From: Escherichia coli O157:H7
Lineage (GTDB): Bacteria; Pseudomonadota; Gammaproteobacteria; Enterobacterales; Enterobacteriaceae
Assembly: GCF_013167455.1 (NCBI RefSeq)
Contig: NZ_CP038328.1
DNA length: 64,000 bases
Direction: 5' to 3' (one strand)
Position numbers: made by a program. Shown piece after piece: positions 27,001-30,000 of this stretch. Within the stretch, counting starts at the first letter, position 1. Every line of letters starts with the position of its first letter.

Positions 27001-30000
27001 TGTCGATATCAGCCGTGGCGGCATGCGTGTTCGTTTGGTTGATAACGGCGCTATCGCCTTTATTCCTGCACCTTTCTTACACGCTGTGCGCGATGAACTG
27101 GTTTGCAGCCAGGAAAACGGCACCGTACAAATTAAAGGTGAAACGGTTTATAAAGTAACTGACGTTATTGACGTCACCATTGCCGAAGTCCGCATGGAAA
27201 CCCGCAGCATTATTGCGCGCCCGGTCGCGTAATCTCCTTTCACGGCCCATTCCTTATGAATGGGCCGTTTATTTCCCCGCTCTACCTTCATCATATCCCG
27301 GCAGTTTTTTAACTGACTTTCGTTTGAAAACTGGCGTTTTTCCAAAACTAGATTACAAATAAATATATAAAAAAAACAATGTGTTTAGCCGCCGTTAATT
27401 TCATGTAAGTCATGTTGTTCCTTTTATTTAACCGCGGACTCCGCTGTTAACCGGAGGATATGCATCATGAAAACCGTTAGGGAGTCCACAACGTTGTACA
27501 ACTTTCTCGGATCGCACAATCCATACTGGCGGTTGACGGAAAGCAGCGATGTTTTGCGCTTTTCTACCACCGAAACCACAGAACCTGAACGTACGTTGCA
27601 GTTATCTGCCGAACAGGCTGCTCGCATCAGGGAAATGACGGTCATCACCTCCAGCCTGATGATGAGTCTGACCGTCGATGAGAGCGATCTTTCTGTGCAT
27701 CTGGTAGGACGAAAAATCAATAAACGGGAATGGGCTGGCAACGCGTCTGCATGGCATGACACACCAGCAGTTGCTCGTGATTTATCACACGGACTTTCCT
27801 TTGCTGAGCAGGTAGTTTCTGAAGCACATTCCGCAATAGTGATTCTCGACAGCCGGGGGAATATCCAACGCTTCAATCGGTTATGTGAAGATTACACAGG
27901 GTTGAACGAACACGACGTCATTGGCCAAAGCGTGTTTAAACTGTTTATGAGCCGTCGTGAAGCTGCGGCATCCAGGCGCAATAACCGTGTATTTTTTCGA
28001 AGCGGCAATGCATATGAAGTCGAACTGTGGATACCAACACGTAAAGGCCAGCGGCTGTTTCTGTTTCGCAATAAATTTGTCCACAGCGGCAGTGGCAAAA
28101 ACGAGATTTTTTTAATCTGTTCCGGCACCGACATTACCGAAGAGCGCCGCGCTCAGGAACGACTGCGTATTCTGGCAAATACCGACAGTATCACCGGACT
28201 GCCGAATCGTAACGCAATGCAGGAGTTAATCGATCACGCTATTAATCAGGCAGATAACAATAAAGTTGGGGTCGTGTATCTTGATTTGGATAATTTTAAA
28301 AAGGTCAACGACGCCTATGGGCATTTATTTGGTGACCAGTTATTACGCGACGTGTCATTGGCTATTTTAAGCTGTCTCGAACATGACCAGGTGTTGGCGC
28401 GTCCAGGTGGCGATGAGTTTCTGGTACTGGCATCCAACACCTCACAAAGCGCGCTGGAAGCAATGGCATCACGAATTTTGACCCGCTTACGGCTCCCCTT
28501 TCGCATTGGTTTAATTGAAGTTTATACCAGCTGTTCAGTAGGTATTGCACTCTCTCCCGAACATGGTTCGGACAGCGCGGCTATTATTCGTCACGCCGAC
28601 ACAGCAATGTACACAGCAAAGGAAGGCGGACGAGGACAATTTTGCGTTTTTACCCCAGAAATGAATCAACGGGTATTTGAATATCTCTGGCTGGATACCA
28701 ACTTGCGTAAAGCACTGGAAAACGATCAGTTGGTTATTCACTATCAACCCAAAATCACCTAGCGTGGCGAAGTGCGCAGTCTGGAAGCACTAGTACGTTG
28801 GCAGTCACCTGAACGTGGGTTGATTCCACCGTTGGACTTCATTTCCTACGCAGAAGAGTCAGGGCTAATTGTGCCTTTAGGCCGTTGGGTGATTCTCGAT
28901 GTCGTACGCCAGGTGGCGAAGTGGCGGGATAAAGGCATTAACCTGCGAGTGGCGGTAAACATTTCTGCACGTCAGCTCGCCGATCAAACCATTTTCACCG
29001 CCCTGAAACAGGTTCTCCAGGAACTCAATTTTGAATACTGCCCTATTGATGTTGAATTGACAGAGAGTTGTCTGATTGAGAATGATGAACTGGCACTGTC
29101 TGTTATTCAACAATTTAGCCAACTAGGTGCGCAAGTGCATCTGGATGATTTTGGTACCGCCTACTCTTCACTTTCGCAACTGGCGCGCTTTCCGATCGAT
29201 GCCATCAAACTTGACCAGGTTTTTGTTCGAGATATTCACAAACAACCTGTCTCGCAGTCACTGGTTCGGGCAATCGTCGCTGTGGCCCAGGCATTGAATC
29301 TTCAGGTGATCGCCGAAGGTGTAGAGAGTGCAAAGGAAGATGCTTTTTTAACCAAGAATGGGATCAATGAGCGGCAAGGATTTTTGTTTGCCAAACCGAT
29401 GCCCGCCGTCGCCTTCGAACGCTGGTATAAACGCTATCTGAAGCGCGCATAAGTAGATGAATATATATACTTAGCGCTATATTCCGTCATTATATATCGT
29501 ATTCCCGGATGATAATTAGCCGTTGCTGTTAAACACTTCTCTTTTAGCGGCAATTTTTGCATTATTCATTTTCCCCCTTTTGCTATAAGGATGTCCTTGA
29601 TGTCTGAATTTGATGCCCAGCGCGTTGCCGAACGTATTGATATTGTGTTAGATATCCTTGTGGCAGACGATTACCACTCTGCGATCCATAATCTCGAGAT
29701 ACTTAAAGCAGAACTCTTGCGCCAGGTTGCTGAATCTACGCCAGACATCCCGAAGGCACCGTGGGAGATTTAACAATCGTGCCTTCAGGTTTTCCTATTT
29801 GAGGATGCCCGGCGCGTCAGTATTTTTTTATTTAGTATTATAACGTTATAAGAATTACAGCGATGAATTCCCGACAACAAACTATTCTACAGATGGTCAT
29901 TGACCAGGGTCAGGTTAGCGTAACCGATCTGGCAAAAGCCACTGGAGTTTCTGAAGTTACCATTCGCCAGGATCTCAACACCCTCGAAAAACTGAGTTAC

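Follow-up and report, generated by a model that had tools for sequence, protein, structure and literature searches.

What becomes of the trigger phosphodiesterase PdeR when a stop codon falls inside its gene, and how does such an allele arise? The question is raised by a stretch of 64,000 nucleotides from Escherichia coli O157:H7 (NCBI RefSeq assembly GCF_013167455.1, contig NZ_CP038328.1; hereafter the window), in which pdeR (yciR/gmr) is interrupted by an in-frame amber codon, TAG, at positions 28760-28762 (+). Here we show that this stop occupies codon 432, which reads TGG (Trp) in about 5,400 complete E. coli genomes, and that it departs from the wild-type codon by a single G-to-A change within a former Dcm methylation site. 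We consider it likely that a spontaneous transition at this site, arising in a small O157:H7 sub-lineage, abolished full-length PdeR and turned the gene into a pseudogene.

PdeR binds the cyclase DgcM (YdaM) directly, as it does the transcription factor MlrA, and inhibition of both persists until cyclic di-GMP (c-di-GMP) is bound and cleaved by the EAL domain of PdeR (Lindenberg et al. 2013, PMC3715855). It is the EAL domain that contacts DgcM and MlrA most strongly, a yciR null mutant hyperactivates csgB, PdeR deleted for EAL retains only slight inhibition, and the GGDEF domain possesses a weak cyclase activity that is masked by the protein's own EAL domain (PMC3715855).

The amber codon on the O157 background

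The codons at window positions 28745-28777 read CAA CCC AAA ATC ACC TAG CGT GGC GAA GTG CGC (frame 1), the mutated base being A28761. An alignment of 7,986 bases with the O157 genome FDAARGOS_293 shows a difference at this base only, where the window has A for G, and the translated frame shows one mismatch to the O157 protein WP_000859972.1; the original prediction that the intact codon is TGG, converted by a single substitution, is therefore borne out. Among complete genomes, FRIK1989 is the closest to the window as a whole; five substitutions and a single insertion sequence of 1,310 bp separate the two, which is normal strain-level variation.

Comparison with pdeR of related strains, which had been proposed as a check, revealed a full-length gene in 5,419 of 5,426 complete E. 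coli genomes, the O157 relatives carrying TGG. Searched against the 5,426 complete RefSeq genomes of E. coli, a 61-base probe centred on TAG had no exact match and reached O157 genomes with one mismatch. That none of these genomes carries the stop on an O157 background could point to an error of sequencing or assembly in the window, but such an error is extremely improbable: the same base is found in an NCBI assembly, in an independent Logan assembly, in further samples, and in a read set with private single-nucleotide polymorphisms (SNPs), the change is a substitution and not a homopolymer indel, and the site mutates in the same way in other lineages. Specifically, the exact 431-residue product is present in public collections as ELW35929.1 (E. 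coli 3.4880) and EFN9289321.1; the window is matched without a difference over 7,296 bases by contig AOET01000052.1 of GCA_000335195.2 (E. coli 3.4880) and by the Logan assembly of SRR537018; further public samples with the same gene neighbourhood also carry the O157 TAG; and a contig of SRR5005506 carries TAG on O157-like sequence with three extra private SNPs. Because several independent assemblies and read sets carry TAG, a recurrence that rules out sequencing error, the codon-432 stop of O157 is a real, rare allele and not an error of base calling.

Locus and domain layout

The frame at 27467-29452 (+), comprising 661 codons and a stop, is pdeR by descent and a pseudogene by function. Window open reading frames (ORFs) and RefSeq annotation place rnb upstream and yciZ, yciT, osmB, yciH, and pyrF downstream, near-identical RefSeq genomes label the ORF as pdeR, cyclic di-GMP phosphodiesterase, and the translated frame contains PAS, GGDEF, and EAL domains, the motifs of the latter two being intact; the gene assignment made earlier thus stands, although the 661-codon frame is no longer uninterrupted, TAG occupying codon 432.

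Domain positions were obtained from a Pfam run on the PdeR protein with Trp432 restored. A PAS_9 domain spans residues 123-225 (E = 1.3e-08), the GGDEF domain (28175-28636 (+); PF00990, E = 1.8e-46) spans residues 237-390 with its motif at 314-318, and the EAL domain (28700-29398 (+); PF00563, E = 1.9e-66, model positions 3-236 of 236) spans residues 412-644 with its motif at 440-442. The N-terminal ORF (27467-28762 (+)), running from an ATG start to the amber codon, encodes 431 residues made up of PAS, GGDEF, and the first 20 residues of EAL, and the frame stays open from TAG to the native stop at 29450-29452. While the amber codon does remove the phosphodiesterase part from the PAS-GGDEF part, as first proposed, it does not fall at the GGDEF-EAL boundary; it is situated 41 residues past the end of GGDEF and about 20 residues inside EAL. 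The first helix/strand segment of EAL, including YQP at 426, lies upstream of the stop, and the motifs EAL (440), NISA (498), ELTE (530), DDFGT (560), KLD (581), and EGVE (617) lie downstream. A search for a solved PdeR structure returned none; solved EAL homologues, of which MorA (4RNH) is the closest, align from residue 397-418 onward. A complete EAL fold is present in neither fragment.

Proposed origin at a Dcm site

Dcm methylates the inner cytosine of CCWGG on both strands, and deamination of the resulting 5-methylcytosine yields thymine, which after replication is seen as a G-to-A change on the opposite strand. Wild-type genomes read CCTGG, a Dcm site, at 28758-28762, where site enumeration in the window gives CCTAG. 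The methylation target on the minus strand, the inner C of CCAGG, lies opposite G28761, and deamination therefore gives exactly this amber codon, which offers a plausible explanation of its recurrence. CCWGG is moreover an established G:C>A:T hot spot in E. coli (PMC13250602, PMC10710837). From this context, which the original prediction had missed, we infer that deamination of 5-methylcytosine at CCTGG caused the Trp432 amber mutation.

The pdeR gene contains eight Dcm sites, at six of which (Q308, W432, Q482, Q518, Q584, and Q608) deamination produces an amber codon, and 60 G:C>A:T transitions in the gene are able to create a stop. In keeping with a hot spot, the mutated pair at codon 432 is the inner C:G of CCWGG, and the same transition recurs independently on at least five haplotype backgrounds. 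The hot-spot explanation rests on sequence context, established chemistry, and these independent recurrences. The paper reporting the same pdeR allele makes no mention of a Dcm link (PMC5635171), and this link is the only modestly new point of the pdeR case.

Recurrence in other lineages

The original prediction treated the stop as a singular event, a view that does not survive comparison: the identical change is fixed in enterohaemorrhagic E. coli (EHEC) O111, occurs also in Shigella, and has been described in the urosepsis strain B-11870. When the probe was given the common proline codon CCG, exact matches were obtained in 44 complete genomes, every serotyped one listed being O111:H8, H-, NM, or H2. 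In O111:H- 11128 (NC_013364.1), pdeR is tagged in RefSeq as a pseudogene with an "internal stop", and carries the same TGG>TAG at codon 432. The 226-residue ORF downstream of the stop is abundant in Shigella and is indexed in 7,585 collection blocks; ACC TAG CGT was read in all five TAG-bearing loci of Shigella type that were fetched. Three of these (L017-L019) have an 11-bp deletion equivalent to window 28738-28748, ending 8 nt upstream of TAG, and two of the three (L017 and L018) also have the codon-154 stop reported for S. flexneri 2457T. The remaining two (L020 and L021) have TAG alone in pdeR, together with IS1 between rnb and pdeR. TAG is also found in the phylogroup-E-like assembly GCA_028631015.1.

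Haplotype distances were taken from a pairwise mismatch matrix over the 1,986-nt pdeR gene, "nearest" meaning nearest among the haplotypes compared. The nearest TGG haplotype to that of the window is O157 wild type, at 1 nt; for the O111 TAG haplotype it is O26, at 2 nt; for the Shigella-type L020/L021 haplotype it is E. coli S1-CAM-02-A, also at 2 nt; and for GCA_028631015.1 it is O157 wild type, at 5 nt. The S. flexneri-type haplotypes (L017-L019) are 21-37 nt from every haplotype compared, with no close TGG relative sampled. The TAG haplotypes are themselves 4-33 nt apart. On these distances, the most economical reading is one of at least four or five independent origins of the G-to-A change. 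The distance matrix rules out common descent of the TAG alleles as a whole, and import by recombination from O111 or Shigella is ruled out for O157, because the O157 carrier retains its lineage-specific CCC codon 11 nt upstream of the stop, the remainder of the gene being of O157 type.

In O111, pdeR has since received a further lesion: IS1203 is inserted about 147 nt (about codon 49) into the gene in about 29 of about 43 O111 genomes, for example at 448-1757 of the locus from strain E2855 (L027), and constitutes a second hit on a pseudogene already bearing the codon-432 amber.

A few observations at or near codon 432 are of a different nature. In SRR31115268, on a phylogroup-E-like haplotype, Trp432 is replaced by TGA and not TAG, a nonsense event in its own right that affects the outer base of the Dcm site, which is not methylated. 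In four loci (SRR2187219, SRR2187253, DRR003227, and SRR2187221) the CCCAAAA run at window 28748-28754 is 1-2 nt shorter. These Logan contigs contain other indels too, and the shorter runs are probably homopolymer read errors and not frameshift alleles. Two contigs with an end or start no more than 10 nt from the site (L008 and L015) had suggested an insertion sequence hot spot at codon 432, which was rejected, these being mere contig ends; the sequence of L008 breaks off at the first base of codon 432, and L015 has TGG.

Proposed consequence

On the preferred reading, a G:C-to-A:T transition at CCTGG would have turned Trp432 into TAG in a small O157:H7 sub-lineage, so that translation would stop after 431 residues and the full-length PAS-GGDEF-EAL trigger phosphodiesterase would no longer be made. 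The PAS-GGDEF stub expected to remain would have lost its EAL domain and, with it, phosphodiesterase activity, the ability to sense c-di-GMP, and the principal surfaces for contact with DgcM and MlrA. Only in a strain with intact MlrA, DgcM, and RpoS would the brake on csgD and curli be lost as a result. Prophage interrupts mlrA very often in O157:H7, and rpoS is often mutated there (PMC5931665, PMC5256220, PMC3874044); both genes lie outside the window. Because mlrA is so often knocked out in this way, the phenotype of PdeR loss may be small, its target MlrA perhaps being absent already. The original prediction of a rewired csgD and curli control therefore holds in part: the same allele does alter this control in B-11870 (PMC5635171), and in O157:H7 it may bring little change. 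For the present strain, the best-supported consequence is that the PdeR brake is lost, to which the stub may add some activating effect.

Such a loss could matter for the persistence of O157:H7 on surfaces, again only if mlrA and rpoS are intact. More generally, the locus illustrates cleanly, in natural isolates, how an amber hot spot driven by methylation gives the same pseudogene repeatedly in E. coli and Shigella, and identical nonsense alleles in different pathogens need not mean selection or gene transfer.

Alternative explanations

PdeR function might be rescued by an amber suppressor tRNA, by UAG readthrough, or by reinitiation at GTG 28772 giving a separate EAL protein. This GTG, the first in-frame start downstream, is 9 nt past the stop and opens a 226-residue ORF (28772-29452 (+), residues 436-661) that holds all catalytic EAL motifs and is automatically annotated as a gene in several assemblies; in addition, the base after TAG is C, which makes for a comparatively weak termination context. 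However, GTG 28772 is without Shine-Dalgarno pairing (-2.0 kcal/mol vs -9.5 kcal/mol at the native pdeR start), is usable by termination-reinitiation only, and would yield a product lacking EAL residues 412-435, the first 24, which are included in all solved EAL structures; rescue from this codon, raised in the original prediction, is consequently unlikely. A second in-frame GTG at 28871 (codon 469; 28871-29452 (+), 193 residues), whose ORF the NCBI annotation of E. coli 3.4880 includes (L006 4405-4986), is better placed (-3.8 kcal/mol, with a weak AGGG Shine-Dalgarno), but its product is without the EAL motif, and neither start combines a ribosome-binding site with a complete domain. There are no tRNA genes within the window, and suppressor tRNAs are not a known feature of wild O157:H7. 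Elsewhere, expression of a cloned pdeR pseudogene from S. flexneri reduced the signal of a c-di-GMP reporter and produced an unexplained band of about 22 kDa that bore the C-terminal tag (PMC11327459), a size that the 193-residue product, also of about 22 kDa, would speculatively fit. The TAG allele of B-11870, in contrast, behaved clearly unlike its TGG revertant (PMC5635171), and rescue by any of these routes is very improbable.

A different possibility is gain of function, in which the 431-residue PAS-GGDEF product is a stable, freed diguanylate cyclase that switches csgD and curli on, the allele being selected in pathogens. In yciR of B-11870, Cimdins et al. 2017 (PMC5635171) describe a TGG>TAG nonsense mutation, which they place at the same position as the stop of O111:H- 11128; overexpression of the truncated PAS-PAC-GGDEF YciR raised both the rdar (red, dry, and rough) morphotype and CsgD at 28 C, reversion of TAG to TGG restored repression of rdar and CsgD (PMC5635171), and later papers from the same group describe the truncation as conversion into an apparent diguanylate cyclase (PMC10459773, PMC10333796). 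Unmasking of the weak GGDEF cyclase activity is consistent with this, as is the finding that codon 432 has been hit in at least five backgrounds. Against it, the B-11870 experiment employed plasmid overexpression in a different strain, the Dcm hot spot accounts for recurrence without selection, functional MlrA is usually missing in O157:H7, and the stub has since been destroyed in most O111 genomes and in S. flexneri, which is unexpected if it were useful. Because IS1203 near codon 49 (O111) and the codon-154 stop with the 11-bp deletion (S. flexneri) wreck the stub, N-terminal destruction in these lineages with old alleles is more in line with neutral decay than with a stub kept by selection. 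We therefore regard a selected gain of function as unlikely. A stronger form of the idea would make codon 432 a mutationally primed one-way switch from curli brake to curli activator, recurrence at the hot spot reflecting selection; if this were true, EHEC O111, Shigella, a uropathogenic E. coli (UPEC) clone, and occasional O157:H7 would repeatedly take the TGG>TAG route, but we hold it to be quite unlikely.

Loss of full-length PdeR through a Dcm-site transition thus remains the preferred explanation, and several points that weigh against it should be set beside it. In an enrichment test, consisting of an exact look-up of 21 hypothetical truncated O157 PdeR products in public collections, products were found for four of six Dcm-type sites and four of 15 non-Dcm sites (one-sided Fisher p = 0.11), a difference in the expected direction but short of significance; some of the products found are labelled partial and are maybe contig-end artefacts. 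Active dcm is assumed for the host, as for E. coli in general, dcm-vsr lying outside the window. Low-level UAG readthrough is conceivable. Furthermore, the rise in CsgD upon overexpression of truncated B-11870 YciR suggests that the stub may not be inert (PMC5635171), and the lowered reporter upon expression of the S. flexneri pseudogene hints at some active EAL fragment (PMC11327459).

Other features of the window

The 1,310-bp insertion relative to FRIK1989 lies at 60968-62277 and has inverted ends of IS629/IS1203 type (TGAACCGCCCCGGG...), a 3-bp duplication (TTC), and minus-strand ORFs of 108 and 296 residues. It interrupts a gene for a DUF1076 domain protein (FRIK1989 annotation), adjoining espM1 and nleG. 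At 17775-20858 (-) lies an RND efflux permease gene, which is a frameshifted pseudogene in the FRIK1989 annotation and aligns to the window without gaps; one of the five SNPs relative to FRIK1989, 18882 A/C, falls within it.

Comparison with known systems

Amber hot spots at Dcm sites are reported to have been first seen in lacI (Coulondre and Miller 1978; Coulondre et al., Nature 1978). The pdeR and lacI cases share the CCWGG context, mutation of the methylated C:G pair, the G:C>A:T direction, an amber product, and independent recurrence. They differ in that the methylated C of pdeR is on the non-coding strand, such that Trp (TGG) and not Gln (CAG) is converted to amber, and in that the pdeR evidence is comparative and not from a mutation assay.

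The yciR allele of B-11870 involves the same gene and the same TGG-to-TAG change, and likewise leaves PAS-(PAC)-GGDEF without EAL. The match in position rests on the statement of its authors (PMC5635171), codon 432 itself having been seen in the RefSeq record of 11128; that paper gives TGA for O111:H- 11128, and codon 432 of NC_013364.1 reads TAG. B-11870 is a B2-type UPEC and not of O157:H7 type, and its phenotype was obtained by plasmid overexpression.

The pdeR pseudogene of S. flexneri (2457T S1372; PMC11327459) has the same TAG and the same 226-residue downstream ORF called, but carries in addition the 11-bp deletion and the codon-154 stop, and belongs to a wider breakdown of c-di-GMP signalling in Shigella. 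The pdeR pseudogene of EHEC O111:H8/H- (11128) has the identical nucleotide change at the identical codon; in the window, too, TGG>TAG directly follows Thr431. In O111, however, the allele is fixed in a haplotype group (the 44 complete genomes) whose haplotype is 32 nt away in pdeR, and most O111 genomes have gained IS1203, whereas the O157 allele is sporadic and otherwise intact. The allele class is thus already known, being nucleotide-identical to the EHEC O111 and Shigella pseudogene alleles, and only the O157:H7 background and the sporadic occurrence are specific to the allele of the window.

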